From assembly GCF_051307035.1 (NCBI RefSeq), contig NZ_CP195536.1, forward strand, positions 1,980,001 to 2,012,000: a stretch of DNA of 32,000 bases. Reading direction: 5' to 3'. Below, in pieces: positions 1 through 30,447 of this stretch. Position numbers and translations under genes: made by a program. The notes beneath the pieces were generated by a model. That model was not told the DNA's origin, searched no databases, and saw nothing but the letters and a program-made list of their open reading frames with translations. The number at the start of each line of letters is the position of its first letter. Position 1 is the stretch's first letter. This DNA is from Psychrobacter sp. DM4. GTDB taxonomy: Bacteria; Pseudomonadota; Gammaproteobacteria; Pseudomonadales; Moraxellaceae.

Positions 1-1
1 G

Positions 2-523
2 GATGTGTTTCAAGGCCCTCAGGACAAAAAAGGCGGCTTCTTAGGTAAGCTATTTGGCGGCGGCAATGGTGGCGGTGATTCTATCGATTTGGATGCGTCG
101 TGCATCATGTTCGATAGCAACAAGCAAGCTGTGGATGCTATTTGGTTTAGTCAATTAAAATCAAAGGACGGCAGCATCGTACATACGGGTGATAACCGTA
201 CAGGCGATGGCGACGGCGATGATGAAGTCATCAATGTCGATCTTGCTCGCGTACCAGCCAACGTGGTATCACTGGTATTTACAGTCAATAGCTTTACCGG
301 TCAAACGTTTGAGACGGTAGAGAATGCTTTTTGCCGTATCGTAAACGCCAATAACAACTCTGAGGTGGCGCGTTACAACCTATCGTCACAGGGCACTCAT
401 ACGGCGATGATCATGGCAAAGGTCTATCGCCACAATAATGAGTGGAAAATGCACGCGATTGGCGAAACAGCCTCTGGTCGCACCTTTCATGACTTGATGC
501 CTGCTATTACGCCACATGCTTAG
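2..523 (+). CDS. TerD-family stress/tellurite-resistance protein (TerD/TerZ/TerX-like), 5' end outside window
   Basis: The frame is open to the first bases of the window, and the listed ORF starts at an internal GTG. TerD-domain hallmarks are present: 'IDLDAS' strand, acidic Ca2+-binding loop 'HTGDNRTGDGDGDDE', and C-terminal 'AKVYRHNNEWKMHAIGE'. The usual N-terminal strand is missing, so the true start lies upstream. Stop TAG at 521-523, followed by a hairpin terminator. Confidence 0.85.
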   Translation, partial: DVFQGPQDKKGGFLGKLFGGGNGGGDSIDLDASCIMFDSNKQAVDAIWFSQLKSKDGSIVHTGDNRTGDGDGDDEVINVDLARVPANVVSLVFTVNSFTGQTFETVENAFCRIVNANNNSEVARYNLSSQGTHTAMIMAKVYRHNNEWKMHAIGETASGRTFHDLMPAITPHA

Positions 524-567
524 TATGATTTAAAGTTAAATATTTAGAGCTTATGCACCTTACAAAA

Positions 568-600
568 GACCGCCCGGCGTTAATCGTTGGGCGGTTTTTT
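568..600. terminator. Rho-independent terminator between convergent TerD and TerA-like genes
   Basis: Stem 'accgccc' (569-575) pairs with 'gggcggt' (589-595) around a 13-nt loop. It is followed by a T-run (595-600) and preceded by an A-run (564-567), so it could act in both directions. Confidence 0.8.
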
Positions 601-646
601 GTTTGGACTGGCTTTTCATGCTACTGTTTTACTTATGCTAAAACAC

Positions 647-1912
647 TTATTTGCTACCCCGCTTCCAGCTAAAGCCCCAGTTAAAAGCTTTGTCCATCTC
701 TTGATGACCTTTAAAGTATTGGTTGATACGCTCAACATTGATACTACCCTGCTGATTGACCAAACGGGCAATAGCACACATCGGCATATTACCTGCGCCC
801 TCAGTCAGGCGGGTCTCGATTGGTGGCTGATCGGGTACATGAATAGTCACAACCCCATCCGTTTGTGCCCAATTTGGGGCGCCCTCATAGATGAATGCAA
901 AGATGAATACCTCTTCGATTTGTGCCCACTGCTGACCGTTGATATCGAGCCACTCGCCGCCACTGACCTGACCGGTTCTATCATCAGCACGTAACAGAAC
1001 ATAAGGCGCCGTTTGCAAACTCCCAAAGCGATTGCCTAAGGCTTGAATCAACGTTTTCTCGCCATTTTTGAGGTGAATCATTGCGCCAACATCAAGGTCG
1101 ATACCACCTGCTTTATGTTGTTTAAATAGGTCACCCAGCAGTCCTTTTTTGGGTGCTTGCTTAGTGGCATCTGGACGCTGATTCCAGTTCAAATTGACCG
1201 ATATCTTGCCAAAATCATCGCGTTTTTTGAGATTAATACTAGATTGATTTTTGGTTAAGGTAATTTTACTTAGATTAATGGAAGGACTGGTAGAATTAGT
1301 AGGAATCGGTGGCGGCGTACTGGTTTGCGCGGCGCTACCTGCTTTTTGGGTGTTGATAGGCTTTTGAGTATTAATAGATTGGTTCTGGTTTTGATTCTGG
1401 GCAGGAGTATCATCGCTGATTTCGACACCGAAATGCTCAGACAAAGGTTTGAGACCCCCTTCAAACCCTTGAGCGATAAACCGAAATTTCCAGCTGCCCT
1501 GACGACGATAACACTCTGCTAAGATAATTGCTTTTTCGTTACGTCCGTTGGCACTTAGCTGACAAGTCATCAGTACTTGGCTACCTTGCAACACTTGAAT
1601 GTCGACATCACCAATCTGCGCCAAGGTTTGCGCGCTTGAGAATGCTAGAGCAATTTTATCGATGTTTGCAGGCTGCGCAGGCAGATCAATATCAAAGAAC
1701 CCATCGCTGTCATGACCTCGAAAGCTCACATGACCATCATCACTACGCGTCTGTCCATAAAATATCATATCACCATCACCGCGTACTTTGCCCTCGCTCG
1801 TTATACGGTAAGCGGCGCAATCGATCGCGTTTTGACTCAAAATACGGATGCTAATGTTGTCTGTTGGCAGTGGCGCATTGGCACCAGCAACGAGTGTTTG
1901 CGGTTGGCTCAT
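647..1912 (-). CDS. terA: TerA-like protein with two TerD-fold domains joined by a Q/N/T/P-rich linker
   Basis: 421 aa. The N-terminal TerD-like domain runs from 'QTLVAGANAPLP' to 'EKAIILAECYRRQGSWKFRFIAQGFEGGLKPLSEHFGVE'. The low-complexity linker reads 'AQNQNQNQSINTQKPINTQK...TSTPPPIPTNSTSP'. The C-terminal TerA-type domain reads 'GGIDLDVGAMIHL...ALGNRFGSLQTAPYVLLRADDRTG...VFIFAFIYEGAPNWAQTDGVVT'. Confidence 0.85.
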   Translation of the reverse strand: MSQPQTLVAGANAPLPTDNISIRILSQNAIDCAAYRITSEGKVRGDGDMIFYGQTRSDDGHVSFRGHDSDGFFDIDLPAQPANIDKIALAFSSAQTLAQIGDVDIQVLQGSQVLMTCQLSANGRNEKAIILAECYRRQGSWKFRFIAQGFEGGLKPLSEHFGVEISDDTPAQNQNQNQSINTQKPINTQKAGSAAQTSTPPPIPTNSTSPSINLSKITLTKNQSSINLKKRDDFGKISVNLNWNQRPDATKQAPKKGLLGDLFKQHKAGGIDLDVGAMIHLKNGEKTLIQALGNRFGSLQTAPYVLLRADDRTGQVSGGEWLDINGQQWAQIEEVFIFAFIYEGAPNWAQTDGVVTIHVPDQPPIETRLTEGAGNMPMCAIARLVNQQGSINVERINQYFKGHQEMDKAFNWGFSWKRGSK

Positions 1913-2068
1913 GATTTATCCTTGATGCGTGAGTATGATTTATTATGGTCTTATAGTAGCATGGATAAAGCTTAATTTTTAGCCAGCACTTGACGAGGAC
2001 AAGCACACTCTAATTAGACTCAAAACTTGTTATGTGAGCATTAGAACAATCTTTGCATAATGATTTAT
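1911..2068. promoter_or_regulatory. Divergent promoter region carrying three direct copies of ATGATTTAT (candidate operator)
   Basis: Exact 9-mer 'atgatttat' at 1911-1919 (overlapping the TerA-like start codon), 1935-1943 and 2060-2068, all in the same orientation. A 'tataat' hexamer lies at 2086-2091, upstream of the ATP-grasp gene. No binding protein is identified. Confidence 0.3.
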
Positions 2069-2134
2069 ATCTCAATGCATTTGTATATAATGGCTGTCAG
2101 ATAAAATATCAAAACATGTGAGGCTGAGACTATC

Positions 2135-3286
2135 ATGGACAATCAAAGCAACAATAACACTTCTAAATCAGCTGCTGTTTGGCTTGCAGAAGGACAATCA
2201 AGCCAGCGTGATATGCTCGCAAGCTTACAAGATCTTAAAATATCATCTGATACGCCATTTACTATTATCGCCTCACATCGTCATCATCGACCTGAGATTT
2301 TTGAATGTGCAGATAGCGTTTATCGAGAGCCCTCTTTAAGCATTAGCGATGAGGAGTCACTGACAGCTAACCCTGTTGAAGCCAAGCCTACTATGGCGCG
2401 TTGGCAGTTCGTATTAGAGCAAGCCCAACAACAAAACGTAAAGGTGCTCCTCACCGGTCGCAATGGTATTGATTATGAAGCACACCGTAATACCTTTAGC
2501 GCCGCTGGTATCCGTCTATTGACAGGCGCAACGAGCGTCGATGCCTTAGAGTCTATCGATGATAAGTTTACCTTTATGAAGCAATGTCACGCTTACAACA
2601 TCCCCGTAGCAGACGCTTGGCGGTTTGATACGACATCTGAGCTACAAGCATTACTTGCTGAGCATGGTCATCAGCCTCTATGCGTAAAGCCGGTCACAGG
2701 TATCTTTGCCCAAGGGTTTTGGCGTCTTGACTCTAGTAAAGAGACAGATGAGCAGTATGATAGCTTTGAGCACTTGTACTTCACTGAAGAGAGAAAAATT
2801 AACACCGAACAATTTATAAATGCTTATACCAACAGTCAAATGGTAAAAGAGCGCCCTATTCCTATGCTACTCATGCCTTTTTTATCAGGACAAGAGTACT
2901 CTATCGACGTCGTCTGCGAGTATGGTGAAGTGTTGGCCGCAATCACCCGTCATAAGACGGGAAAAGTCCAGCATATTGGTTACGAGCAGCCGGTTATGGA
3001 TGTCGTCATTCCGCTAATCAAAGCTTTTGGCTGCGATGGTATCGTCAGCGTACAGACCAAAGCTGATGATGACGGTCAGCACCGCGTCCTTGAGATCAAC
3101 TCGCGTCCCTCAGGCGGTATCGGTTATACCTCTCATAGCGGCGTCGATCTAACGCAAGTGGCTTTTAGCTATTGGCTTGGACTCACGGACAAACCCAAGC
3201 TTGAGGATATGATAAAAACATTTACGCCTTGTCAGGTACGCTCTATTATGACGAGCGTCAAGATAGAAGCTGAAATGCTCAAGTAA
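2135..3286 (+). CDS. ATP-grasp family ligase (Ter-associated biosynthetic module)
   Basis: 383 aa with the ATP-grasp layout: 'DDKFTFMKQCHAYNIPVADAW', 'PLCVKPVTGIFAQGFWRL', 'LMPFLSGQEYSIDVVCEYGEVLAAITRHK' and 'HRVLEINSRPSGGIGYT'. It sits next to TerA/TerD genes, as described for Ter-linked modules. Confidence 0.85.
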   Translation: MDNQSNNNTSKSAAVWLAEGQSSQRDMLASLQDLKISSDTPFTIIASHRHHRPEIFECADSVYREPSLSISDEESLTANPVEAKPTMARWQFVLEQAQQQNVKVLLTGRNGIDYEAHRNTFSAAGIRLLTGATSVDALESIDDKFTFMKQCHAYNIPVADAWRFDTTSELQALLAEHGHQPLCVKPVTGIFAQGFWRLDSSKETDEQYDSFEHLYFTEERKINTEQFINAYTNSQMVKERPIPMLLMPFLSGQEYSIDVVCEYGEVLAAITRHKTGKVQHIGYEQPVMDVVIPLIKAFGCDGIVSVQTKADDDGQHRVLEINSRPSGGIGYTSHSGVDLTQVAFSYWLGLTDKPKLEDMIKTFTPCQVRSIMTSVKIEAEMLK

Positions 3287-3333
3287 GCTAGCTGCCTTAT
3301 AACTTTAGCAGACTCATCTTCTACAACAATAAA

Positions 3334-4533
3334 TTAATGGCTGTTGCTGGTTAATTCAGGAAAACGCTTTATCATAAAAATTACGAGTATCAGCGCTAAT
3401 AAGGCAATGGCAGCGCCGACGTAGCCCACGCTCGATAGAGAGATATAGGTGACCGCGTAACCGCCAAGCAGTGCCCCTGTACCTATGCCTAAGTTGATGA
3501 TGCCCGAGAACATCGCCATCACCATGTCTTGGGCGTTGATATCAATCTCAATCACTTTGGACTGGATGGTTAACATTAGCAGTATCATGGCTGTACCCCA
3601 AATCACGGTGATGATGCTAAATAACCATATCGATGTCGCCGTCCATAACATGAGTAGCATCGCCCCTATCATGAGCACTGTAGATACTAGCATCATGGTA
3701 GTACTCGATCTGTCACTCCAGCGACTAAATATATAACTGCCAACGAGTCCTGCGCCGCCAAATAGTAACAGGATGAGCGTCACTAAGTTCTCACTCATAG
3801 CGCCAACCCGATTCAAAAAAGGTTCGATATAAGTATAAGCGGCATAATCTGCGGTAAAGATAATAAAGCAGAATACATACAGACTGACTAATAAAGGATT
3901 CTTGAGCAATTCTGGGATTTTTCTAAAAGAGCCGTTAAACATACTAGGCAGTGTAGGTAATAATCTGGCTTGCAAAATAAATACGATAAAAGCAATGATT
4001 CCAATACCCGCAAAGGTCGTGCGCCAACCAAACCATTGTCCTAATATACGTCCTATAGGTACGCCTAATACTAGCGCTAAAGAGGTCCCTGTAGCCAATA
4101 TGCTAAGCGCCAAGGCCCGTTTGCCTTCAGGTGCTACCCGCAGCGTTATCGCCGCAGTAATGGACCAAAATATCGCATGCGAAAAAGCAATCCCTACTCG
4201 GCTAACCAAGAGAACTTGAAAGCTCCAGGCAAATACAGATAAGGCATGACTGGTAATAAAGACCACGAATACAGCTAGTAGCAAGCGCTTGCGCTCAAAC
4301 CTGCTGGTCAGTAGCATCAGTGGTAATGACATAGCCGCGACGACCCAAGCATACAGCGTTAACATCCAGCCTGTTTCTGCCGCCGTGATAGAGAAATCTT
4401 TGGCGATGTCACTGAGCAATGCCACAGGCACAAATTCTGTAGTATTAATCACAAAAGCACTAATACCCATCAAGATCACTCGAAAATACTGAGTGCGGCG
4501 AGACACTGACCCTATCTCAAAATTATTTTCCAT
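3334..4533 (-). CDS. sotB: MFS transporter, SotB-like sugar efflux family
   Basis: 12-TM MFS protein collinear with my recollection of E. coli SotB/YdeA: 'NTTEFVPVALLSDIAKDF', 'LTLYAWVVAAMSLPLMLLTS', 'SHAIFWSITAAITLRVAPEGKRALALS', 'FSGIINLGIGTGALLGG'. The ATG at 4533 (MENNFE...) is preferred over the listed 4569 start, whose extra 12 aa are hydrophobic filler. It lies antisense to the flanking Ter-module genes. Confidence 0.85.
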   Translation of the reverse strand: MENNFEIGSVSRRTQYFRVILMGISAFVINTTEFVPVALLSDIAKDFSITAAETGWMLTLYAWVVAAMSLPLMLLTSRFERKRLLLAVFVVFITSHALSVFAWSFQVLLVSRVGIAFSHAIFWSITAAITLRVAPEGKRALALSILATGTSLALVLGVPIGRILGQWFGWRTTFAGIGIIAFIVFILQARLLPTLPSMFNGSFRKIPELLKNPLLVSLYVFCFIIFTADYAAYTYIEPFLNRVGAMSENLVTLILLLFGGAGLVGSYIFSRWSDRSSTTMMLVSTVLMIGAMLLMLWTATSIWLFSIITVIWGTAMILLMLTIQSKVIEIDINAQDMVMAMFSGIINLGIGTGALLGGYAVTYISLSSVGYVGAAIALLALILVIFMIKRFPELTSNSH

Positions 4534-4886
4534 AACACTGACTACTATAAAAAAGTGCACATATAGCACGGCTGACCCAAAAATGGGTGCTAGGATTTAG
4601 GGAGTATAAGTAGAGAGTAAGGCGCATTCATTTGCGGTAATATAGCTCTACTTTTGATTCAAGTTTCGTTCAGCGGCATATTCTAGTACATTGTTTTTTG
4701 ATTATCTATCAGACTTATGTTCACGGTAATTGATTGAGTCTATTAAAACTGCTTTGCCCTCCAGTTCTATGCAAAAGTCGTTAGAATGGACAAACTTATG
4801 TATTATATACCTGTATATCTATAGCGGTAACTTTGATAAGATTTAGCTCCTAAGTATATGACGAATATTTGAACAGAGGATAGGCA

Positions 4887-6110
4887 ATGACAGCCCAGAC
4901 TACGCTAGTGCTAGGCGCAAATACCATTATTGAGCATCCTAAGTGTTCAGTTGCTTTTGCTACAAATAATCCGCTCAAATTTGGTCAGCAGCTTGGTCTG
5001 ATTTGGTTGCCTTTGGATGAGAGCCGAAAAGCAGCTTGTAGTCCCGCCTACCTTCATGAGCCCAAAGACTGGGCACAGCTAGATGATAGCGAGAACCCCA
5101 GTAGATGGCAGCTTGATTTGCCAAAGCTATTTGAGACGCAAAATGTGAGCTATCTACAGCTTATTGCCTATGCTTACTATGAGCCGAGCTTAAACTTGCC
5201 TGCGGTTGAATTAAATCATATTAGTTTGAGATTGAATAATAGCGCTATACGTTACGACTTTATAGTGAGCGAGCGCCATGTCAAAGCTGCCATTATATTA
5301 GAGATATACAAACGTAATGGACAGTTTAAATGCAGGGCGTTAGGTGAGAGCTCAACCCAAGGATTAGCAAGCCTAGAGCAGCGCGTGCAAGTGAGCCTAG
5401 ATACTCGTCCACCAGATACTCATGCGCTCATTCAATCGGCGCAGCAGCAGCAACGAGGTCAGTCAAACAATGAGTTACGCCCGCCGCGTCATGTTGAACC
5501 GGGCGAGACATGGACGGGCACAGCGTTCGCTATTGGCCCCTATCATCTATTGACCTGCTATCATGTGATTGAGTCGGCGGCGATGATTGCTATACGTCAG
5601 CAAGGGCCTCCTGACATAGAGGCGCAAGTGGTGATGAGCGACATCGGTAGTGATTCAGCTATCATTAAAGTTCGCGAGCCGCTACCTAGCTATCTACCGC
5701 TCGCGCAGCAGTGCTCAGATATATTGGGCGAGACCATTACCACCCTAGGCTTTCCCCTATCAGGCGTGAGTAGTCAGTTGCAAGTGACCCAAGGCTGTAT
5801 CTCAGGATTGACAGGGTTTGGTGACGATATCCGCTATATGCAATTTACCGCGCCCATTCAGCCCGGCTCTAGTGGTAGCCCTTTATTGTTGCCAACGGGC
5901 GAGGTGATCGGCATGGTGACGGCTAGCCTCGTCCATGAACAGGCACAAAATATGAACTATGCGGTGAAATTTCAGTTATTATCCGCCCTACTCGCGAGCG
6001 CTGGCATCAGTTTGGACAACTCACATTCTGTATCAGCCGCGAATTTAAGCACACCGCAACTGAGCAAACAAAGCCGCAGCGCGCTCTGGCTAGTTGGTTG
6101 TCAGGATTAG
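4887..6110 (+). CDS. Fusion protein: N-terminal TerD-fold (TerA-N-like) domain + C-terminal trypsin-like (S1/HtrA-like) serine protease
   Basis: Residues 1-170 parallel the N-domain of the TerA-like protein. 'MTAQTTLVLGANTII' matches 'MSQPQTLVAGANAPL', and 'VKAAIILEIYKRNGQFKCRALGESSTQGLASLEQRVQVSLD' matches 'EKAIILAECYRRQGSWKFRFIAQGFEGGLKPLSEHFGVEISD'. A Q-rich linker follows, then the protease with candidate triad His226 ('LLTCYHVIE'), Asp256 ('SDSAIIKV') and Ser329 ('QPGSSGSPLL'). Triad spacing of 30 and 73 residues is typical of S1C proteases. RBS 'agagga' lies upstream. No signal peptide or TM segment. Confidence 0.8.
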   Translation: MTAQTTLVLGANTIIEHPKCSVAFATNNPLKFGQQLGLIWLPLDESRKAACSPAYLHEPKDWAQLDDSENPSRWQLDLPKLFETQNVSYLQLIAYAYYEPSLNLPAVELNHISLRLNNSAIRYDFIVSERHVKAAIILEIYKRNGQFKCRALGESSTQGLASLEQRVQVSLDTRPPDTHALIQSAQQQQRGQSNNELRPPRHVEPGETWTGTAFAIGPYHLLTCYHVIESAAMIAIRQQGPPDIEAQVVMSDIGSDSAIIKVREPLPSYLPLAQQCSDILGETITTLGFPLSGVSSQLQVTQGCISGLTGFGDDIRYMQFTAPIQPGSSGSPLLLPTGEVIGMVTASLVHEQAQNMNYAVKFQLLSALLASAGISLDNSHSVSAANLSTPQLSKQSRSALWLVGCQD

Positions 6111-6194
6111 ACAGACCTTTAATACCAAACAAAAACTATTATAGAGTTATCAAAAATAAAAAATACCGAAAATCAGAAACATCAAGGAATATGA

Positions 6195-7436
6195 ATGTCA
6201 AAGCAGCAACACAGTACTCGCATCACCTTACCTCGCGGTACATTAGATTTAACGTATCAAACCAATAGCACCAACAATAATAAAAACTATGAACTTGAAG
6301 ACTTACTTGGCTTTGCGCAGCGCATTAACCCCAAACGTGCGTTTTTATTCGTCTCAAAAGTCTTGGGTCGACACATTCCCGTCGCACCTCATACCATGCG
6401 TCGTGCTTTTACGGATTTGGCAAACCTAGTCCCTAGCAAGTTACCCGAGCCCATTTTAGTTATCGGTATGGCAGAGACTGCTGTGGGCTTATCTGCAGGC
6501 GTCCATCAAGCGCTACAAGCGCGCTATTTGAATGCTGTACTACTCAACTCCACGCGTCACGCACAGCATAGCGATAATAATAGTGAGACCTTGCTGACCA
6601 CTTTTAGTGAAGACCATAGTCACGCCAGCCAACATCTCATCTATCAAAGCTGCGATAAAATGACTCAAGAGCAATTGCTGGCTAGCAAAACGTTGATTAT
6701 GGTTGATGATGAAGCCTCAACAGGTAATACCTGCGTCAACGTCGTGACCGCACTGCGTAACGCTGGTCTGAACCAATTAGAGCAAGTCCATCTCACAACT
6801 TTGGTGGATTGGTCGCTAAGTCACGATGCAACTGATGCTGATGACACTATATCAACGCGTTTGCCTAATATTGACTTTCAGCGTCATCACTTGCTCTCTG
6901 GGGCATGGCAATGGAGAGATGCGCCTAATCCTGAACCGATCACTATGCCCTCAGTTGATACGACTGATGCTGGCACGCAAACGTTGGGTAATACAGGGAA
7001 TTGGGGACGCTTTCCCACTCTAAATAGCACTAATGGCTTTGCCCATTATTTAGCAAATTTTCAAACAAAGTTTGCACGCTTTCATGAGCAAGCGATATTT
7101 GCTAAAAAGCAATTACCCCAGCGTATTTTGGTTTTAGGTAGTAATGAGTTTGTCTGGTTGCCGTTTTTATTAGCGGAGTGGCTTGAGCAAAATACTGGCT
7201 CACAGAATGAAGTAAAGTTCAGCGCCTTGACCCGTTCACCGATTGCGCTTGGTGGTGCAATTACAACTATGCTCAGCTTTCATGATAATTACGGATTGGG
7301 CATGACGAACTTTGCTTATAATGTCGAGCCAAAGGATTGGGATTTGATTGTGCTATGTGTAGAAACGGCCGCTGCTAGTGTTGATACCATGTGGCAAAGT
7401 TTGGATAATGTGTTGGTGATGAGTCCTATACCTTAA
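6195..7436 (+). CDS. Phosphoribosyltransferase-domain protein with C-terminal TRSP-like domain (Ter-associated PRTase)
   Basis: 413 aa. PRPP-binding signature 'LIMVDDEASTGNT', preceded by 'LVIGMAETAVGLSAGV'. The C-terminal region 'RILVLGSNEFVWLPFLLAEWLE...FSALTRSPI' is consistent with the TRSP domain reported after this PRTase type in Ter loci. RBS 'aaggaa'. Confidence 0.75.
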   Translation: MSKQQHSTRITLPRGTLDLTYQTNSTNNNKNYELEDLLGFAQRINPKRAFLFVSKVLGRHIPVAPHTMRRAFTDLANLVPSKLPEPILVIGMAETAVGLSAGVHQALQARYLNAVLLNSTRHAQHSDNNSETLLTTFSEDHSHASQHLIYQSCDKMTQEQLLASKTLIMVDDEASTGNTCVNVVTALRNAGLNQLEQVHLTTLVDWSLSHDATDADDTISTRLPNIDFQRHHLLSGAWQWRDAPNPEPITMPSVDTTDAGTQTLGNTGNWGRFPTLNSTNGFAHYLANFQTKFARFHEQAIFAKKQLPQRILVLGSNEFVWLPFLLAEWLEQNTGSQNEVKFSALTRSPIALGGAITTMLSFHDNYGLGMTNFAYNVEPKDWDLIVLCVETAAASVDTMWQSLDNVLVMSPIP

Positions 7437-7478
7437 ATCGCATTCAAACTTCTAAACTTATCATTTACGGACACTACT

Positions 7479-8297
7479 ATGACCACCTCATTCTTCGAGT
7501 CTAACCCAAACCTTATAAAACCATACGCTCTTATGGATTTGGACGACACTTTATTTCAAACCCAACGTAAGATTGAGGCTTGGGATCTGCCTACTGCTGA
7601 CCCTAAAAACTTAGTTTGTGCGACGGTAAATAAACAAGACGAGCCGCTTAGCTTTATGAGTCAACGACAAGCGACGTTTTTTAATTGGTTGCTCGCTAGC
7701 ACTGAATTGATAGTGGTTACTGCCCGTGACCGTGATGAGATTAAACGCGTTAAGCTGCCTTTTAACAGTTGGCAAGTGCTGACTCATGGCGCGATTATCT
7801 TAACCAGTAATGGCGAGCTACTAAGCACATGGCAACAGCATATGTATCAGCAGCTAAGTCCCTTGCAAAATAAACTGAATCAGTTAAGCCAACTATTTGC
7901 CAGTCATAGTAAAAATGATAACAGTCAGCTGGTATTTACGCCGCATATTGATAACTTTGATGCTGGTTCTACTAACGAAGAATTAACCATTTATCTAGCG
8001 ATAAAACATGCCAAAAAAGATCATCGAGCATTAAAAGAATTAGCCGAGAAGCTCCCTACATTGATCCGTGATTTTGCACAGGACTTTTATGTGCATGTTA
8101 ATGCTAATAATCTAGCGATACTGCCGCATGCTATTCATAAGCAACATGCGGTACAGTTTTTATTAGATCATCATTTAGACAGTCAGCGTCCGAGTTTTGG
8201 CTTTGGTGACAGTCTGGCAGATTTGCCGTTTCTGCAACTACTTGATTGGTACGGTATGCCCAATCACGGTCAGCTGCATGACAATCTTAGTTCTTAA
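7479..8297 (+). CDS. HAD-superfamily phosphatase (Ter-associated)
   Basis: 272 aa. HAD motif I 'LMDLDDTLF', motif II 'VVTARD', C-terminal acidic motif 'FGFGDSLADLPFL'. Confidence 0.75.
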   Translation: MTTSFFESNPNLIKPYALMDLDDTLFQTQRKIEAWDLPTADPKNLVCATVNKQDEPLSFMSQRQATFFNWLLASTELIVVTARDRDEIKRVKLPFNSWQVLTHGAIILTSNGELLSTWQQHMYQQLSPLQNKLNQLSQLFASHSKNDNSQLVFTPHIDNFDAGSTNEELTIYLAIKHAKKDHRALKELAEKLPTLIRDFAQDFYVHVNANNLAILPHAIHKQHAVQFLLDHHLDSQRPSFGFGDSLADLPFLQLLDWYGMPNHGQLHDNLSS

Positions 8298-8371
8298 TGG
8301 TTTTTGGCTCTTAACAACTCTCAAATATCAATAATTATAATAACAACAGCTTATACGAGAAAGAACCTCTT

Positions 8372-9562
8372 ATGACCAACCCTAATCTTCAAAAATTAAA
8401 CCATTACGGCTCAGGCAGTTATCTTGCTAGCGATGTCACTGTACTGCTCGACATCGTCGCTAAAGACGCGGTTACCGATGTGCCCGTCACTCAAAAAGAA
8501 GCGCTGATTCAAAGTGGACAGCGTCATTATTCGGACATGCTAACCCTAGAGCAAGCACCAACAGCCATGCATGAGCAACTGTATAAGCAGGCACTGGATC
8601 AAGGCACAGATAGAACCGCAACCGATATTGCCAATTTAGCTTATACGCTAAGTCGTATTTTTCAGCAGACTGTCAATGTTGAGCATCCATTAGTATTGGT
8701 CAGCTTAGTACGGGCAGGTTTGCCAATTGGCGTATTATTACAACGGGCCTTATCAGATAATGGAAATTCAGATAATGAAAATTCAGATGCTGATAGCAGC
8801 TATGCGCTGCCAAGTGTGCATTTTGGTATCAGCATTATTCGTGATCGCGGTTTAGATGCTGTTGCTTTGCAAATGATATTGGAATTTTATCCAAACAGCC
8901 CTATCGTATTCGTCGATGGCTGGACAGGCAAAGGCGCTATTTATCAGGAACTAGCTCGTAGCTTAGAGCCATTTAGCGATAGCAGTCACCCCCATTTTGA
9001 AAATATTTTTCATCAAGGAAAAGACGTTATTCCCCTGCTGACACTGGCTGATCCAGCGGGCGTCGCTTGGCTTGCGGCGAGCGAAGATGATTGGCTCATT
9101 CCATCAGGTTTATTAAACAGCACCGTGTCAGGACTCATATCACGCAGCCTCTATACTGAGCCGCAATTAGGACTACATCGCAGCGTGTTCTATGATAACT
9201 TGAGTGATAAGGATCATAGCTTAGCGCTGGTTGATCGTATTGATGCAACGAGGCGTACAATAGCAACACCTTTGCTAGGTTTGCCAACGTTTGCTCTGCC
9301 TCGGTATCAGACCTCTGATCTCATAGATAAAATAGCAGTAGACTATAACATCACCAATCGCAATCGCATTAAGCCGACCATTGCAGAGGCAACGCGGGCT
9401 ATATTACGCCGTGATCCTGAGCGCATTTTACTTGCCGCATCCGACCATCCTGATACTTTATTATTGCGTCATTTATGCGAAGATCGTGATATCACTATCA
9501 GTATATTAGGTGATAAAATACGGCCCTATCAAGCCATCACTTTGATCAAGCAACGTAGCTGA
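8372..9562 (+). CDS. Second Ter-associated PRTase-like protein with C-terminal L7Ae/PELOTA-like domain
   Basis: 396 aa. PRTase-like core: 'LVLVSLVRAGLPIGVLL', 'IVFVDGWTGKGAI'. The C-terminal ~70 aa, 'ATRAILRRDPERILLAASDHPDTLLLRHLCEDRDITISILGDKIRPYQAITLI', follows the L7Ae/Pelota RNA-binding pattern. It contains an in-frame 15-bp tandem repeat that encodes SDNGN/SDNEN/SDADS. Confidence 0.7.
   Translation: MTNPNLQKLNHYGSGSYLASDVTVLLDIVAKDAVTDVPVTQKEALIQSGQRHYSDMLTLEQAPTAMHEQLYKQALDQGTDRTATDIANLAYTLSRIFQQTVNVEHPLVLVSLVRAGLPIGVLLQRALSDNGNSDNENSDADSSYALPSVHFGISIIRDRGLDAVALQMILEFYPNSPIVFVDGWTGKGAIYQELARSLEPFSDSSHPHFENIFHQGKDVIPLLTLADPAGVAWLAASEDDWLIPSGLLNSTVSGLISRSLYTEPQLGLHRSVFYDNLSDKDHSLALVDRIDATRRTIATPLLGLPTFALPRYQTSDLIDKIAVDYNITNRNRIKPTIAEATRAILRRDPERILLAASDHPDTLLLRHLCEDRDITISILGDKIRPYQAITLIKQRS
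8753..8797 (+). repeat. In-frame 15-bp tandem repeat (about 3 units) inside the PRTase gene
   Basis: Units are 'tcagataatggaaat' (8753-8767), 'tcagataatgaaaat' (8768-8782) and a degenerate 'tcagatgctgatagc' (8783-8797). Confidence 0.85.
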
Positions 9563-9605
9563 GAGATTTGAGCTTCTACGACTGTCCTATTAATATATAT
9601 TCTGC

Positions 9606-10724
9606 ATGTTAAAACCAATATTTCACTCACTTATGATGCCTACTATGTCAGATACGCCAGATAACGAGTCAAACCTCTATAGCTATACCCAGTCTTATGC
9701 GCATCTGATCACTGAGCGTCATGCGATGGTCAAGCCGCATACTCATCACCCTTATCAGTTGGGTGCTAGCCTCTATATGCCAGCGACGCGTCAAGACATC
9801 TGGCAAGTCATCAAACGTGATAAATTACCGAAGATTAACAGCATTATCATCTGCCTAGAGGATGCGGTAAGTCATAGCGATGTAGAGCTGGCGCTGGAAC
9901 GTTTGCAGACGTTGCTGAATACGTGGCACGAGCATAGTGATACGATCAATGAGCCATCGAGAGTGGGCCTTGAATCAGACTTAGGCACCCAGCAACCGAC
10001 ACGGCCGCTAGTGTTTGTGCGTCCACGCAATCCTATGATGCTACAACAATTGGCAGATTATCCTCATATTGACCTGCTCGATGGTTTTGTCATGCCCAAA
10101 GTCGATATGTATAGCTTATCCAATTGGCGCATGGTATGTCAGAACTTGAGTGACGATCAGCTATTGATGCCAACACTTGAGACTGCTGCTTTATTCAATC
10201 CTCATCACAATCAAGAGCTGGCTATAGCTTTTAAAGAAGCTTTTAATCAGCCTGTCTTTGCGCTACGTATCGGCGGTAATGACTTGTTTGCTACGCTACG
10301 CCTGCGTCGCCCTAGAAATAGCATCATCTATGATACGCCTATTGGTACTCTTGCCTATCAGCTGCTAGGCTGCTTTGTGCCGCACGGGTTTTATCTATCT
10401 GCGCCTGTCTTTGAGTATCTAGATCAGCCTATGTTGTTTATGCAAGAGCTCAGTCGTGACGTCAGTTTGGGGCTGGTTGGCAAAACCGTCATTCACCCAA
10501 GCCAAATAGCCTTAGTTCAGCAGGCCTATTGTGTGCCTATGAGTATGCTAGATGAGGCGCAAGCGATCCTTCATAGTGAAGCAAAAGCGGTCTTTAAATT
10601 TAACAATACCATGTTAGAGCCTGCCACCCACCGCGCTTGGGCTACCGAAATCGTCAATCGCGCTGAGGTGTTCGGTACTATCAACAATAGTAGCAATGAG
10701 TTTAATTCGCGGCTACAAGCGTAA
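9606..10724 (+). CDS. HpcH/HpaI aldolase / citrate lyase beta (CitE)-like TIM-barrel C-C lyase (Ter-associated)
   Basis: 372 aa. 'LGASLYMPATRQD', 'IIICLEDAV', 'LRIGGNDLFATLRLRR' and 'GKTVIHPSQI' match the CitE/HpcH-like pattern. It is the last gene of the co-directional run 4887-10724. The start is ambiguous, with ATGs at 9606, 9633, 9636 and 9645. Confidence 0.75.
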   Translation: MLKPIFHSLMMPTMSDTPDNESNLYSYTQSYAHLITERHAMVKPHTHHPYQLGASLYMPATRQDIWQVIKRDKLPKINSIIICLEDAVSHSDVELALERLQTLLNTWHEHSDTINEPSRVGLESDLGTQQPTRPLVFVRPRNPMMLQQLADYPHIDLLDGFVMPKVDMYSLSNWRMVCQNLSDDQLLMPTLETAALFNPHHNQELAIAFKEAFNQPVFALRIGGNDLFATLRLRRPRNSIIYDTPIGTLAYQLLGCFVPHGFYLSAPVFEYLDQPMLFMQELSRDVSLGLVGKTVIHPSQIALVQQAYCVPMSMLDEAQAILHSEAKAVFKFNNTMLEPATHRAWATEIVNRAEVFGTINNSSNEFNSRLQA

Positions 10725-10832
10725 ATTATTTACCTATTTATATATTGTATTGGCTTGATAAGCTAGGTAAGATGATTTGCATTGGTCCAAATGACCGATG
10801 GTAAATTTATAAAATAAAATATCAAAACGTTA

Positions 10833-10905
10833 TTCACAGGGGCGCCTTTAGGCTGAGATGTACCCTTTGAACCTGATCCAGGTCGTACTGGCGTAGGGAG
10901 TGTAT
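10833..10905 (+). promoter_or_regulatory. TPP (THI-box) riboswitch aptamer upstream of thiM
   Basis: 'acaggggcgcctttaggctgagatgtaccctttgaacctgatccaggtcgtactggcgtagggag' contains the conserved THI-box elements GGGG.GC, CUGAGA, ACCC, AACCUGAUC and GGCGUAGGGA. Downstream, 'gttttctc' (10938-10945) can pair with the SD region 'gagagaac' (10966-10973), which suggests translational control. Confidence 0.9.
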
Positions 10906-10973
10906 AGCTGTCACCGTATCCAATCGTGATGCTATGCGTTTTCTCGCCTGCTATTTTTAGTTATGGAGAGAAC

Positions 10974-11771
10974 ATGCACCCTCAATCGATTCATTCGTGT
11001 TTTACTGCTTTTCGTACTCAAGCGCCCTTAGTACACAACATCACTAATTTTGTCGCGATGAGTACCGCTGCCAATGTTCTACTAGCCGCTGGTGCCTCGC
11101 CCGCTATGGTGCACGCTAGAACAGAGGCGCCAGAGTTTGTCCGCCTATCCCACGCACTCACCATTAATATCGGCACGTTATCACCTGATTGGCTGGATAG
11201 TATGCTGGCAACGGTAGAAGTCGCTCACAACCAAAACATCCCCTGGGTCTTAGACCCTGTTGCGGTAGGAGCTACTACCTTTCGTAAGCAGAGCTGTGCG
11301 CAATTATTAGCGTTCAAACCCGATGTCATTCGCGGTAACGCTTCAGAGATTTTGGCGCTTGCCGGTATGAATAGCAAAAGCCGTGGCGCAGATAGCGGCG
11401 ATACTGTCGAGTCGGCAAAGGTAGCCGCTCAAGAGTTAACTCAACATGCCAAAGTCGTTGTCGTCACCGGTGAGGTCGATTGGGTTACTGATGGCACGCA
11501 GCGATGGAGCGTACATCAAGGCGTACCTATGATGACTCGTGTGACCGCGATCGGCTGTGCACTGACCTCTTTGATTGGCGGCTTTGTCGGTAGTAATCGC
11601 GACGACTTGGCAGGCGCTGTCATCAGTGCTCTATGCTATTACGGACAGGCGGGTGAACTGGCGGATAAGACAGCAAAAGGTCCTGGCAGTTTCTATGTCG
11701 AATTTTTGGATGCTCTCTATCATCTAGATGCTGATCAAGTCTCTAAACACGCCAAGGTGATTGTCATATGA
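10974..11771 (+). CDS. thiM: Hydroxyethylthiazole kinase
   Basis: Collinear with E. coli ThiM: 'PLVHNITNFVAMSTAANVLLAAGASPAMV', 'LTINIGTL', 'PWVLDPVAVGAT', 'IRGNASEILALAG', 'VVVTGEVDWVTDG', 'GPGSFYVEFLDALY'. The ATG at 10974, with RBS 'ggagag' 3 nt upstream, is preferred over the listed 10926 start. Confidence 0.93.
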   Translation: MHPQSIHSCFTAFRTQAPLVHNITNFVAMSTAANVLLAAGASPAMVHARTEAPEFVRLSHALTINIGTLSPDWLDSMLATVEVAHNQNIPWVLDPVAVGATTFRKQSCAQLLAFKPDVIRGNASEILALAGMNSKSRGADSGDTVESAKVAAQELTQHAKVVVVTGEVDWVTDGTQRWSVHQGVPMMTRVTAIGCALTSLIGGFVGSNRDDLAGAVISALCYYGQAGELADKTAKGPGSFYVEFLDALYHLDADQVSKHAKVIVI

Positions 11772-12427
11772 GCCTATCCAACCAAAACAACACTAGCAAA
11801 TCTAGTGAAGCATTACGCTTATATCTAGTCACCGATAGCGCGATGTGTACAGAATATGGATTAATTGACACCGTTTGCGCGGCCATTGATGGCGGCGTTA
11901 CGATGGTACAGTTGCGCGACAAACAAGCTAATGATGATGAGTTGTACAACACGGCTTGCGCGCTCAAAGAAGCGATTGCTGGACGTGTGCCTCTAGTCAT
12001 AAATGATCGTGTCGCTATTGCCAAAAAAGCTCAGCTTGATGGCGTCCATCTTGGACAAGGCGATATGTCTATCAGTAAAGCGCGAGCGATCTTAGGCGCG
12101 GACGTTTGGCTGGGATTGTCGATTAATACTCTCGATGAGCTACGCATCGCACACGCTCAGCACCTCTCACATCTGGACTACGTCGGTATCGGTCCCGTCT
12201 TTGCCACCGCAACCAAAGCTAATCATGCAGACCCTATCGGTATAAAAGGCTTGGGGGCTTTGGTCGCACAGAGTCAATTACCTACGGTAGCCATTGGCGG
12301 TATTGGTCAAGACAATGCCGCTGACGTCTATACCACAGGCTGCGACGGTATCGCTGTCGTCTCAGCGATTTGCAGAGCTGCCGATCCAAAAGCTGCTGCC
12401 AAAACTCTATTAGGAGCACAATTATGA
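11768..12427 (+). CDS. thiE: Thiamine-phosphate synthase
   Basis: 'LYLVTD', 'VQLRDK', 'LVINDRVAIA', 'GVHLGQGD', 'GIGPVFATATK' and 'VAIGGI' motifs. The start overlaps the thiM stop in an ATGA junction. Confidence 0.93.
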   Translation: MSLSNQNNTSKSSEALRLYLVTDSAMCTEYGLIDTVCAAIDGGVTMVQLRDKQANDDELYNTACALKEAIAGRVPLVINDRVAIAKKAQLDGVHLGQGDMSISKARAILGADVWLGLSINTLDELRIAHAQHLSHLDYVGIGPVFATATKANHADPIGIKGLGALVAQSQLPTVAIGGIGQDNAADVYTTGCDGIAVVSAICRAADPKAAAKTLLGAQL

Positions 12428-13218
12428 TTGCCAATATTTTAACCATTGCTGGTACTGACTGTACTGGCGGTGCAGGTATTCAAGCAGATATCAAAGCCAT
12501 CAGCGCCAATGGCGGCTATGCGATGAGCGTCATCACGGCAGTCGTCGCGCAAAACACTCAAGGCGTCCAGCAAATTCAGATGCTACCTACTCAGATGGTA
12601 CGCGCTCAAATTGACTCGGTGTTTAGTGATGTGCGCGTTGATGCGGTCAAAATCGGTATGCTCGGTAGCGCTGACATTATTAATTGTGTAAGCGATGCCT
12701 TGGCAAAATACCAACCCAAAAAAGTCGTACTCGATCCGGTTATGGTTGCCAAGAGTGGGGATCGCTTGCTGGATGCCGATGCGCTATCGGCGATGCGTAA
12801 GCTACTGCCACTAGTCGGACTGATCACGCCTAATCTACCAGAAGCAGCGGACTTACTAGGTGAGGAGGAGGCTAAAGATCGCAATGAGATGCTAGCGCAA
12901 GCTGGTCGCCTGTCAGTGCCTACCTTTTTGAAGGGTGGTCATTTACAGCAGGACGATTCGCCAGATTTATTATACGTCGATGGCGCGCATCAATGGTTTG
13001 AAAGCGTACGAATAAATACCAAAAATAGTCATGGTACAGGATGTACGTTGTCAGCGGCGATTGCCACCTATTGGGGACGCGGTGACGATCTAGATGTCGC
13101 TTGTGCAAAAGCAAAAACCTATCTCACTGGTGCGCTACAACACGCGGACAAACTCGACGTTGGACAAGGTCAAGGCCCTGTGCACCATTTTCATGAGTTC
13201 TACTCGGTTTCGGAGTGA
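12424..13218 (+). CDS. thiD: Hydroxymethylpyrimidine/phosphomethylpyrimidine kinase
   Basis: 'ILTIAGTDCTGGAGIQADIKA', 'VDAVKIGML', 'VVLDPVMVAKSG', 'LITPNLPEA', 'HGTGCTLSAAIA'. The ATG at 12424 has RBS 'aggag' and overlaps the thiE stop in an ATGA junction, so it is preferred over the listed 12370 start. Confidence 0.93.
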   Translation: MIANILTIAGTDCTGGAGIQADIKAISANGGYAMSVITAVVAQNTQGVQQIQMLPTQMVRAQIDSVFSDVRVDAVKIGMLGSADIINCVSDALAKYQPKKVVLDPVMVAKSGDRLLDADALSAMRKLLPLVGLITPNLPEAADLLGEEEAKDRNEMLAQAGRLSVPTFLKGGHLQQDDSPDLLYVDGAHQWFESVRINTKNSHGTGCTLSAAIATYWGRGDDLDVACAKAKTYLTGALQHADKLDVGQGQGPVHHFHEFYSVSE

Positions 13219-13258
13219 ATATTCTATAATGATTAAGCTGGTCTAAAGAGTATTCATT

Positions 13259-13916
13259 ATGATTAAAAATGGATTACCAGCTCCATACGTTATGCTCGTA
13301 TTGGCGCCATTACTTTGGGCAACGAGCAACGTCACAGGCAAGCTTGGCAAAGGCTGGCTGACCCCGTATGAGATGACATTTTTTCGCTGGTTTATCGCGA
13401 CCCTTATCTTGACGTTTTTTGCTCGCAGGCTGATTGAAAAAGATTGGGCGATGATCAAACAACATTTGCTATGGTTGTTTATCGTTGGTGGCGGCGGTTT
13501 TGCTTTATTTAATATTGTTCTATATAGCGCCTCTTCTTTGGGTCAGTTTAATGTGGGCGATGAGTTTGGCAGGACTGATCGTTGCGACGCCTTTTTATGG
13601 CTATGATTTGGCACAAAATGGCATCCACTTTCCTGATTGGCGCGGATGGCTGATGCTGCTCTATATTGCGGTATTTATCTCTAAGCTGTTTTATATGGAA
13701 AGCGTCATCCAGATCGGAGCAAATCGTGCGTCACTGGCTATGAGTCTGTTGCCTGTGTTTGGCACGGTGATGGGTGTGTTGTTTTTAAAAGATGAGATAA
13801 TGACCATCAATCATATCATTGCGCTAGGATTGGTCATGGTAGGTATCGTAAGCTCAGAATATGGGGCCGCGCTAAGACGACAACCCCATAGGCAAATTGT
13901 AGCTACTAAGAATTAA
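13259..13916 (+). pseudogene. EamA/DMT-family transporter remnant (frameshift plus probable internal deletion)
   Basis: Two overlapping ORFs, 13259-13606 and 13485-13916, lie in different frames (+1 shift). The first encodes DMT-like TM1-3, ending 'GGGGFALFNIVLYSA'. The second encodes the last four helices, including 'LLPVFGTVMGVLFLKDEI...ALGLVMVGIV'. The combined span is about 219 codons, against about 290-300 for intact 10-TM EamA proteins. That implies loss of about 3 helices near 13530-13545. Confidence 0.55.
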
Positions 13917-13943
13917 GAGTGCTAAGACCTAGCTAAAATAGCG

Positions 13944-13990
13944 GATACTGATACTGATACTGATACTAAGATTGAGATTGAGACTGACTG
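13944..13990. repeat. Hexanucleotide microsatellite block spanning the stop codon of the hydrolase gene
   Basis: (gatact)x4 at 13944-13967, directly followed by (agattg)x2 + agactg at 13969-13986. On the minus strand this encodes the C-terminal 'SQSQSQS', then the TAG stop (13966-13968), then an in-frame (TAT CAG)n continuation. Confidence 0.9.
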
Positions 13991-14790
13991 GCTAAAAACT
14001 TACTCATGACTTTGTTCACAGCATCAGGTGCTTCTACTGTCGAGGTATGTCCTGAGCCTTTGATGACCGCAAGCTTGGAGCTTTTAATACCAAAGTGCAT
14101 GCGCTCAGCTTTGCTATAAGGCGTTGCCACATCTTCGTCACCTACGATGATAAGTGTCGGTGTGGTGATGTGGCCGAGCTGATCAAGGATACCTTTACGT
14201 TCAATGACCCCTGTTGTTGCTTTGACCACGCCGCCTTTGCGGTTGGTTTGTAGTACGGATAACCATTCTTTACGAGCCGCTTTTTGCGTTTTATCGGCTA
14301 AAAAGGTCGCGCCGAACATAATAGGCATTACTTTTTTACTGACCCGTTTCATACCGAGTAAGCGGATTGCCATCAATAACTTTTTGTAGCCCGGTACATT
14401 TTCTAGATCCTCAGCATCAGCAGAGGTATCTATTAGCGTTAGCGTATTTAATAAATCAGGGCGCTTAATGGCAACGCGCTGACCGACAAAGCCGCCCATA
14501 GACAACCCAACATAGTGACAGCTATCGACATTTAGGGTGTTAAGTAGCTCGATCGCATCATCCGCTAACGTGTCCATATCGTAGCCGTCTTTGGTAATCT
14601 GCGACTTCCCTTGACCACGAAAGTCAAAAGCGATACAGCGATAGTCGTCTTTGAAATGCTCAACTTGGTTTTTAAACAAGCGCGTATTCCATAATAAACC
14701 GTGTGCAAATAGCATCACAGGTTTTTGCTGCTCATCGGGAGCGCTGTCTTCGTAATAAATGTCCGTATTATTGATCTTGATATGAGGCAT
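13966..14790 (-). CDS. Alpha/beta-fold hydrolase
   Basis: 274 aa. Oxyanion 'LFAHGLLWN', nucleophile elbow 'GLSMGG', C-terminal 'GSGHTS' histidine motif. Substrate unknown. Confidence 0.85.
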   Translation of the reverse strand: MPHIKINNTDIYYEDSAPDEQQKPVMLFAHGLLWNTRLFKNQVEHFKDDYRCIAFDFRGQGKSQITKDGYDMDTLADDAIELLNTLNVDSCHYVGLSMGGFVGQRVAIKRPDLLNTLTLIDTSADAEDLENVPGYKKLLMAIRLLGMKRVSKKVMPIMFGATFLADKTQKAARKEWLSVLQTNRKGGVVKATTGVIERKGILDQLGHITTPTLIIVGDEDVATPYSKAERMHFGIKSSKLAVIKGSGHTSTVEAPDAVNKVMSKFLASQSQSQS

Positions 14791-15076
14791 AACGACTTCC
14801 TTGTGTAGTATGAATATTTAGGTATTGGCGTAAAGCTTTAGATAAGTGACCATCGATAAAATCAAAGCCCTAGCCAAAGAGTTATTTGTACTGCTTAGTG
14901 GCACGTTTTAGCATAAGTCACAAAGGGATGCTTTGATAGTAGTATTTTTGAATGAGAAGTTTTACCATCTATTTATTATGGCGCAAAAGTGTACAAAACC
15001 TGATTTTCTCATCGTCTCAAACTGCTATAGTATTCAATGATTGCGCACCCAACTTCACTTATTTTAAGGATATAAC

Positions 15077-19290: not shown

Positions 19291-19683
19291 ATAGGATTTC
19301 CTCGTCGGTCGATAGTCAGCACATCGCGTGGGTAGTCAGTATGACTGCCTGCATTGATGCGCTATTTTGAATAACTGTATATGTGAACGAATGTAGTACT
19401 GAATAGTAAGCGGATTAATTATCCCTGCTAATATAGCCTAAAATGACCAAAATGTTAATGGCTCGGCTAAGAAAAGACTTCATAATATAGCGATATTGAA
19501 TATTTATTAAAAAAATGGTCTCATAAATTAGCGAATTAAACGCCCTATCCTCACCTGCTAAACTTGTTATCCATTGCTAAAGTCACTATCACCAGTTTGC
19601 TATACTACTTAATCCATTTAAAATATCTGCCGTCCAAAAATTTAAAACGAATTAACCACCTTAAAATTGAAACAGGGTAAATC

Positions 19684-28111: not shown

Positions 28112-28164
28112 GATTTTTTTCCTTCAAAGGTAATAGTTGTAGAGATAGAGACATCTCTAATTTA

Positions 28165-28800: not shown

Positions 28801-28817
28801 GATAAGCATATTTTCTT

Positions 28818-29540: not shown

Positions 29541-29560
29541 ATTTGCTAGCACTCACCTTT

Positions 29561-30382: not shown

Positions 30383-30447
30383 AAGATAAGCTCCGTTGAT
30401 GCTAATGATAATATTGGTTTTATGAATAAGAGTGCCTAGAACCTGCT

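Follow-up and report, generated by a model that had tools for sequence, protein, structure and literature searches.

We have analysed a stretch of 32,000 nucleotides (nt) from Psychrobacter sp. DM4 (NZ_CP195536.1, positions 1,980,001 to 2,012,000), which we call the window. Positions 1-10724 of the window very probably hold the Psychrobacter copy of the enzyme module that accompanies tellurite resistance (Ter) genes, together with two TerD-family genes, a protease fused to a TerD-like domain and an inserted transporter of the major facilitator superfamily (MFS). The predicted product of the module is a nucleoside-like compound. This region is the right-hand half of a Psychrobacter chromosomal ter island, and the copy of the module that it carries is intact but ordinary. 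As summarised in PMC7824862, PMC8115787 and PMC11994780, the five-enzyme, Ter-associated module was predicted by Anantharaman, Iyer and Aravind in 2012 (Mol Biosyst 8:3142) to make a nucleoside-like metabolite. The product was still described as predicted and unknown in papers of 2021 and 2025 (PMC8115787, PMC11994780), and no product of the module is reported in the literature that we searched.

The five enzymes of the module

Genes were called from a listing of open reading frames (ORFs) and a Pfam scan of the window, which together give nine genes in 1-10724. An initial annotation, made from the sequence alone, had named a TerD, a TerA-like protein, an ATP-grasp ligase, two phosphoribosyltransferase (PRTase)-type proteins, a HAD phosphatase and a lyase in this region. 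All of these lie where it had placed them, and Pfam supports each of the nine genes. It had also recognised the enzyme set as that of the Ter module known from comparative genomics; both the five families and their order match.

The module begins with a Ter-associated ATP-grasp amidoligase (2135-3286, + strand; PF15632 ATPgrasp_Ter, 114 bits). The other four enzymes are a PRTase_2 phosphoribosyltransferase that ends in a TRSP domain (6195-7436, +; PF15609, 181 bits; PF12500, 65 bits; Pribosyltran, PF00156, 28 bits), a HAD-IIB (Cof-type) phosphatase (7479-8297, +; Hydrolase_3, 30 bits, with weaker matches to TIGR01484 and TIGR00099), a PF11202 ('StiP') protein with a fused PELOTA/L7Ae-like domain of the RNA-binding type (8372-9562, +; PF11202, 257 bits; PELOTA_1, 78 bits) and a CitE/HpcH-like TIM-barrel C-C lyase (9606-10724, +; C-C_Bond_Lyase, PF15617, 331 bits). 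The Pfam scores of the five enzyme families are all above the gathering cut-offs. A failure of the two PRTase-type proteins to match PRTase profiles would have told against the initial annotation; both match their Pfam profiles. PF11202 is, we take it, the family that was formerly named PRTase_1. Together with the protease fusion described below, the last four enzymes make up a run of five + strand genes (4887-10724) with spacers of 84, 42, 74 and 43 nt.

Conservation of the module across genomes

The family of the lyase comprises 649 clusters at 50% identity. We searched 80 genome loci anchored on the lyase with the proteins of the window. These loci come from other genera; the search pattern, built from an alignment of 14 sequences, missed Psychrobacter itself. 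The PRTase_2-TRSP and HAD genes are each found in 76 of the 80 loci, the PF11202-PELOTA gene in 78, and the ATP-grasp gene, at the head of the module, in 60. The PRTase_2, HAD, PF11202 and lyase genes stand in a conserved order in 76-78 loci, which rules out a chance juxtaposition of genes. This order spans the Gamma- and Betaproteobacteria and also enterobacterial IncHI2 plasmids.

TerD genes are physically linked to the module, and most loci have TerC and TerB linked to it too. A TerD gene lies within 10 kb of the module in 61 of the 80 loci, and a TerA gene is found in 60-63. The initial annotation would have been undermined had the enzymes not been conserved alongside TerD-family genes, and this co-conservation is what the 61 loci display. 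The loci lacking TerD within 10 kb are 14 Moraxella loci (among L001-L015) and short contigs.

The commonest arrangement, that of most Pseudomonas, is ATPgrasp-fusion-PRT2-HAD-PF11202-lyase, followed by terZ-terA-(terB-terC)-terD-terE. In Burkholderia and Thiothrix the order of the module is kept and the ter genes are placed or oriented differently. On an IncHI2 plasmid, terZABCDEF faces a run of ATPgrasp-PRTase-HAD-StiP-lyase-DUF4236-terW-terXY-PP2C-kinase. Homologues of PF11202 occur on 2574 plasmids, and one is found in the Acinetobacter jumbo phage vB_AbaM_ME3.

The ter genes beside the module

The window opens within a TerD-family gene in the terZ position (2-523, +; Pfam TerD, 156 bits), the frame of which is open to the window edge at base 2. 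Its protein matches residues 31-202 of a 202-residue TerD in the related Psychrobacter locus L081 with 98% identity. Since the match starts at residue 31, about 30 codons of the gene lie outside the window. This TerD keeps the canonical calcium-binding motif, GDNRTGDGDGDDE.

The second gene, for a TerA-like protein (647-1912, -), is transcribed divergently from the ATP-grasp gene. The protein has an N-terminal TerD domain (Pfam TerD, residues 29-161) plus about 260 more residues; its C-terminal half is divergent, has no Pfam match and shows a weak colinear similarity to TerD. Against the TerD structures of the PDB the protein matches 2kxt (E = 1e-17) and 3ibz (E = 2e-14), and over its full length it is about 39-44% identical to the gene in the terA position of the Pseudomonas, Burkholderia and Thiothrix loci.

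Our view of the island beyond the window comes from L081, which is an 89%-identical relative and not the same genome. The order in L081 is rlmL, TerD-TerC-TerD-AIM24-TerD, terA (-), ATP-grasp, MFS (-), fusion protease, PRTase_2, HAD, PF11202-PELOTA, lyase and thiM, with the housekeeping genes rlmL on the left and thiM on the right flanking the island. It had been suggested that TerB, TerC and TelA might lie upstream of the window. For TerC this is borne out by the TerD-TerC-TerD-AIM24 run of L081, but neither TerB nor TelA is present there.

Pfam found no TerB in the window, and the Psychrobacter relatives L081 and L084 have none. A tblastn search with E. coli TerB matched 55 of the 80 loci from outside the genus; Psychrobacter, Alkanindiges and Fluviicoccus gave no match. 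All three of these genera have an AIM24 (PF01987) gene and a TerC of the DUF475 type instead (L081 1052-5607; L084 3218-7388; L024; L044).

Variation of the module in the Moraxellaceae

Fourteen Moraxella loci (among L001-L015; M. osloensis with related Moraxella and Enhydrobacter, about 60% identical) hold the five enzymes alone. No other gene of the window was matched in the flanks searched, which extend about 5.5 kb upstream and, depending on the contig, 2-10 kb downstream. At L005, where the module lies at 5493-10936, Pfam identified no Ter protein among the 10 scanned ORFs of 170 or more amino acids that flank it; these ORFs include an OPT transporter and a WavE-like gene. We also note that L002 (BMPS01000026.1), labelled as Streptomyces cinereus JCM 3040, carries a module with the gene order of M. 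osloensis, the lyase of which is 61% identical to that of the window. The contig probably reflects contamination of an actinomycete assembly.

Within Psychrobacter itself the module is less uniform. L084 has two leucine-rich repeat (LRR) proteins in the spacers of the module and an MscS channel in place of terA (L084 12670-15027, 7498-8514), and in P. arenosus (L085) the spacers at 11289-15600 hold NYN/OST-HTH, NADAR-DarT1 and PIN genes, with no ter genes upstream. The module seems to tolerate or attract insertions. Genes on the opposite strand have been inserted between those of the module in other species of Psychrobacter, which argues that a single transcription unit is not a requirement. 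This bears on the proposal that 4887-10724 is a single operon. The co-directional genes and the gaps of 42-84 nt stand, and an operon is plausible here, but the insertions in relatives speak against an obligatory one.

Catalytic motifs and a proposed pathway

In the ATP-grasp protein K185 and E320-x-N322 are invariant in 59/59 orthologues. The phosphoribosyl pyrophosphate (PRPP) loop of PRTase_2 reads LIMVDDEASTGNT. Its residues D171, D172, E173, T176, G177 and T179 are invariant in all 75 orthologues, A174 and S175 are found in 74 of them, and position 178 is variable; the loop fits the type I pattern of a hydrophobic run and two acidic residues followed by T-G-x-T. Motif I of the HAD phosphatase (D20-x-D22-x-T24), its T81 and its G243-D-S-x-x-D248 are invariant in 76/76 orthologues, as are E85, D86, R139, R141, R221 and H297 of the lyase in 79/79. 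Sequence searches of the PDB gave no significant match for PRTase_2, the Ter ATP-grasp or PF11202.

When the lyase profile is compared with solved structures, the nearest are citrate lyase beta, malyl-coenzyme A (CoA) lyase and CLYBL. These three enzymes act on acyl-CoA substrates, which hints at an acyl-CoA-type substrate for the lyase of the module. The longest ORF of the lyase encodes 372 amino acids and is 100% identical to a 359-residue NCBI protein of Psychrobacter sp. DM4. In view of the length of that protein, the start is probably the methionine at 9645 and not 9606, which would widen the gap between the PF11202 and lyase genes from 43 to 82 nt.

These enzymes can be arranged into a pathway along the lines of the 2012 model. 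One or both PRTases would couple PRPP to a base or an acid, giving a ribonucleotide from which the HAD phosphatase would strip the 5' phosphate to leave a nucleoside-like compound. The ATP-grasp enzyme may add an amide-linked group, and the CitE-like lyase may make or trim a side chain, either a carboxylate or an acyl (CoA-type) one. The product might then act with the membrane-associated TerD/TerC complex under tellurite, phage and colicin stress, and the TerD-like domain of the protease could have a role in regulation or targeting and so tie proteolysis to this complex.

A number of points weigh against this reading. Every step of the pathway is inferred from domain families. Local linkage to ter genes is not obligatory, because the Moraxella loci hold the five-enzyme module alone. 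TerB, the proposed link between the module and TerD/TerC, is missing from the Psychrobacter island; in the account cited in PMC11994780, terB is said to accompany the biosynthetic module in just this role. Nor is the module needed for tellurite resistance, since terZ-F alone is enough in Klebsiella and E. coli (PMC8115787) and terCD is enough in Pseudomonas citronellolis (PMC8779313). Promoter and terminator scans of the cluster stayed at the chance level given by shuffled sequences and were uninformative as to an operon. Finally, PADLOC-DB 2.0 returned generic protease-domain and weak PRTase matches only and no system model, a result that also tells against the anti-phage reading discussed in the next section.

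A TerD-like domain fused to a protease

Between the ATP-grasp and PRTase_2 genes lies a TerD-like::S1 serine-protease fusion (4887-6110, +; Trypsin_2, 75 bits, with a weak TerD match). Its TerD-like N-domain covers approximately residues 1-170 and its trypsin-like S1 serine protease approximately residues 205-365. The TerD match of the whole protein, at 23.7 bits, falls just short of the cut-off of 25.3, whereas the isolated N-domain reaches 25.4 bits; all 19 of 19 diverse orthologues of the fusion match Pfam TerD at E <= 0.01, the best at 1.4e-9. In an AlphaFold model of residues 1-170 the block-mean predicted local distance difference test (pLDDT) score is mostly 82-93, with 67-73 in three of the 17 ten-residue blocks. 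A Foldseek search with this domain has four significant matches, in which the TerD structures 3ibz and 2kxt take ranks 2 and 3 (probability 1.00, template modelling (TM) score about 0.6 on the target). The N-domain is, as modelled, a beta-sandwich of the TerD fold. The calcium-binding GDN..TG..GDDE motif is absent from it, whereas the TerD in the terZ position retains this motif. In the protease domain the triad of H226, D256 and S329/S331 (in GSSGSP) is invariant in 49/49 orthologues; the AlphaFold model of this domain is poor, with pLDDT below 50.

The fusion occupies the slot between ATP-grasp and PRTase_2 in 49-50 of the 80 loci (Pseudomonas, Burkholderia, Thiothrix, Niveibacterium and Fluviicoccus). 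Overlooked so far, it belongs to the module as a common sixth member, present in about 60% of loci. The initial annotation had counted it, together with the MFS transporter, as one of two extras of this copy. The transporter is indeed lineage-specific, but the fusion sits in a standard slot.

In a different reading, the module would be the signalling arm of an anti-phage system and would make a nucleotide-like second messenger when the cell is infected or stressed. The fusion would be its ligand- or calcium-gated effector, by analogy with the protease effectors of other defence systems that signal through nucleotides. In favour of this reading, about 50 of the 80 loci encode within the module a protease whose catalytic triad is intact, and the NADAR-DarT1, PIN and NYN genes in the module spacers of P. 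arenosus are typical of defence islands. Furthermore, Aravind and co-workers call the product a signal of incoming threat and a jumbo phage carries the module (PMC7824862), and ter loci confer resistance to phages and colicins (PMC8115787, PMC5822837). However, in addition to the lack of a PADLOC-DB system model, the enterobacterial and Moraxella versions keep the five enzymes without the fusion protease. A HAD phosphatase and a CitE-like lyase would also be a better fit to multi-step metabolite synthesis than to a one-step messenger synthase. We regard the signalling arm as unlikely, and prefer the synthesis of a nucleoside-like metabolite that acts with the Ter proteins.

A related proposal concerns the fusion itself. 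It could be a ligand- or calcium-gated effector that turns the nucleoside-like product into proteolysis of, e.g., TerD paralogs, AIM24 or envelope proteins, and that operates independently of TerB in the Moraxellaceae. This strikes us as quite unlikely.

The inserted transporter

The MFS transporter (3334-4569, -; MFS_1, 158 bits) is of the DHA1, YdeA/sugar-efflux type. It scores 522 bits against NCBIfam PRK03545, 'sugar transporter', where the cut-off is 401, has a weaker match to NepI and shares about 49% identity with E. coli YdeA. Inserted between the ATP-grasp and fusion-protease genes, it is the only lineage-specific gene of the cluster. It is found in 0 of the 80 loci of other genera and is also missing from Psychrobacter L084 and L085; copies of 93% identity are present in L081 and L082. 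No repeats were found flanking the insertion. Because the module spacers of Psychrobacter hold varied cargo, we take the transporter to be an incidental insertion in one sublineage.

The transporter might have been recruited to export the product of the module, in which case the compound would be secreted in this Psychrobacter lineage, e.g. as an antibiotic-like or chelating nucleoside. Its place inside the module, divergent from the fusion-protease gene, its conservation in two relatives and its membership of the sugar/nucleoside-efflux branch are what one would expect of such an exporter. The distribution of the gene is not, and the unrelated cargo (LRR, toxin-antitoxin-type, MscS) at the same module in other Psychrobacter points to insertion-tolerant spacers and not to functional recruitment. 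We give export of the product little chance, and retain the reading of an incidental insertion.

The PF11202 protein and the StiP label

The second PRTase-type protein of the module requires more discussion, as it carries the name of a protease. Its R114-A-G116 and D182-G-W-x-G-K-G188 are invariant in 78/78 orthologues, and T185 is found in 74 of the 78. The invariant motifs SxVRAGxP and VDGWTGKG resemble PRTase loops, although the VDGWTGKG loop has one acidic residue and not the usual pair of type I PRTases. We built an AlphaFold model of the PF11202-PELOTA protein from 40 sequences, which is of moderate quality (pLDDT 72.9, predicted TM-score 0.78). In local Foldseek searches the model matches HGPRT/PRTFDC1 with a probability of 0.97-1.0 over about 150 columns (TM 0.36-0.52 on the target), and the C-terminal 95 residues match L7Ae/Snu13 with a probability of 1.0. 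Whole-chain matches to serine hydroxymethyltransferase and pyridoxal phosphate enzymes were rejected as spurious (TM 0.2, root mean square deviation about 20 Å). Judged by this model, the description of the cluster as having two PRTase-type proteins appears to hold at the level of fold, with catalysis by the second of them putative.

Pfam names PF11202 'tellurite-like stress resistance cysteine protease StiP', after a study of A. baylyi, and NCBI propagates the name to thousands of proteins. According to the account in PMC11994780, which cites Reichert et al. (2013), the A. baylyi mutant is tellurite-sensitive, and StiP was reported to be a protease on which normal morphology and resistance to tellurite depend. 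This qualifies a statement of the initial annotation, that to its knowledge neither the product of the module nor its link to TerD proteins had ever been shown experimentally. The papers of 2021 and 2025 agree as regards the product (PMC8115787, PMC11994780), but the phenotype of the A. baylyi mutant, as cited in the latter, is a reported genetic link between the module and tellurite resistance. In its treatment of StiP the 2025 paper, on Bacillus, sets this gene outside nucleotide synthesis (PMC11994780), a placement that follows from the propagated protease name.

An alignment of 16 diverse PF11202 orthologues has no invariant cysteine column. The only cysteine of the window protein belongs to the PELOTA domain, where its position is not conserved, and the near-invariant cysteines (at least 90%) of the Pseudomonas/Burkholderia-type proteins at positions 229 and 271 are Ala229 and Ser271 in the window. 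No match described as a protease is found among the best 50 Foldseek PDB matches of the model, and the homologue in phage vB_AbaM_ME3 is annotated as a phosphoribosyl transferase. Given the absence of a conserved cysteine and the PRTase-like predicted fold, 'cysteine protease StiP' is probably a misnomer as regards the chemistry of the family. The A. baylyi protein after which PF11202 is named comes, like the window ortholog, from the Moraxellaceae. It is reported as a protease in the work that PMC11994780 cites, whereas the window ortholog lacks any cysteine that would be a candidate for catalysis and has a predicted fold that is PRTase-like; to judge by its residues and its model, the name is not consistent with it. 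That PF11202 is a cysteine protease after all, such that two proteases process Ter or envelope proteins and PRTase_2, HAD, ATP-grasp and lyase alone are biosynthetic, has the protease report, the Pfam and NCBI name and the separate placement of StiP in PMC11994780 in its favour, but is most improbable in the face of the missing cysteine, the PRTase-loop-like motifs and the HGPRT-type and L7Ae-type local folds.

Relation to known Ter loci

The window is an orthologous copy of a system that has already been described, a Psychrobacter ter cluster has already been published, and the inserted YdeA-type exporter is the sole peculiarity of the present copy. The published cluster, from P. glacincola BNF20, was described in 2018 (PMC5822837) and put in 'group I' of Anantharaman et al. 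It shares with the Psychrobacter island described here a reversed terA, the absence of terB and an AIM24/TIGR00266 gene among TerD paralogs. PMC5822837 makes no mention of ATP-grasp or phosphoribosyl genes, i.e. of the adjacent module, whereas the window includes the module but, of the ter genes, only the last two.

The enterobacterial ter islands of the IncHI2/pK2044 type have the same five families in the same order, with the module divergent from a terZ/terA-type pair of TerD genes; the PF11202 proteins of the window and of the enterobacterial module are 42-44% identical. The enterobacterial island adds DUF4236, terW, terXY (vWA), PP2C, kinase and terB genes, and is without the TerD::protease fusion and the MFS transporter. 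The Psychrobacter island, unlike it, has AIM24, a DUF475-type TerC and no terB.

The chromosomal ter loci of Pseudomonas, Burkholderia and Thiothrix (L017-L080) have the same six-gene order beside terZ-terA at 33-48% identity. These loci have terB, an enterobacterial-type terC and no MFS transporter. In most Pseudomonas and Burkholderia terZ and terA come after the lyase on the same strand, and in Thiothrix they are upstream on the opposite strand. None of them has terA alone reversed upstream, as the window does.

The border of the island and neighbouring genes

The right-hand border of the ter island is marked by a thiamine pyrophosphate (TPP) riboswitch (Rfam RF00059, 10828-10916, 73.6 bits) and, directly downstream of it, thiM-thiE-thiD (10926-13218). 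The riboswitch lies outside the cluster and is the sole real match of our Rfam scan, which found nothing in the cluster at the gathering cut-off or at E <= 1. We also sought a leader or K-turn-like element for PELOTA upstream of 4887, and found that the spacer is conserved among near-identical relatives only.

Two further observations were made in the remainder of the window. An EamA-family transporter gene (13259-13916) appears to be broken into two ORFs, 13259-13606 and 13485-13916, which overlap and are read in different frames. In L081 the gene at the syntenic position (18373-19311) encodes one EamA protein of 312 amino acids. A frameshift, a pseudogene or an error in sequencing could explain the break. 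On the - strand at 27026-31425 the Pfam scan identifies a run of five genes, for a radical S-adenosylmethionine (SAM)+DUF3641 protein, a DUF547 protein, a family-2 glycosyltransferase, a DUF2064 protein and a SAM methyltransferase. We presume that this run resembles the arsenosugar-like clusters of the ArsS/ArsM-type, 'rSAM/selenodomain-associated' kind.

Implications for Ter biology

More than 2,500 plasmids sequenced from Klebsiella, E. coli, Salmonella and Enterobacter carry the module, as do many chromosomes, and its chemistry has been a question since 2012. The window contributes no new component to it, and no easier route to the chemistry than the enterobacterial, Pseudomonas or Bacillus copies. 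The label 'cysteine protease StiP' has been widely propagated and already misleads published interpretation.

The Moraxellaceae do supply natural variants that can be used as handles, namely an island without TerB, the module without neighbouring Ter genes in M. osloensis and the module broken by insertions in P. arenosus. If the fusion were in fact a gated effector, the 'biosynthetic arm' of Ter would be a stress and phage defence pathway that signals through a small molecule, and its operation without TerB in the Moraxellaceae would challenge the model in which TerB is the adaptor.

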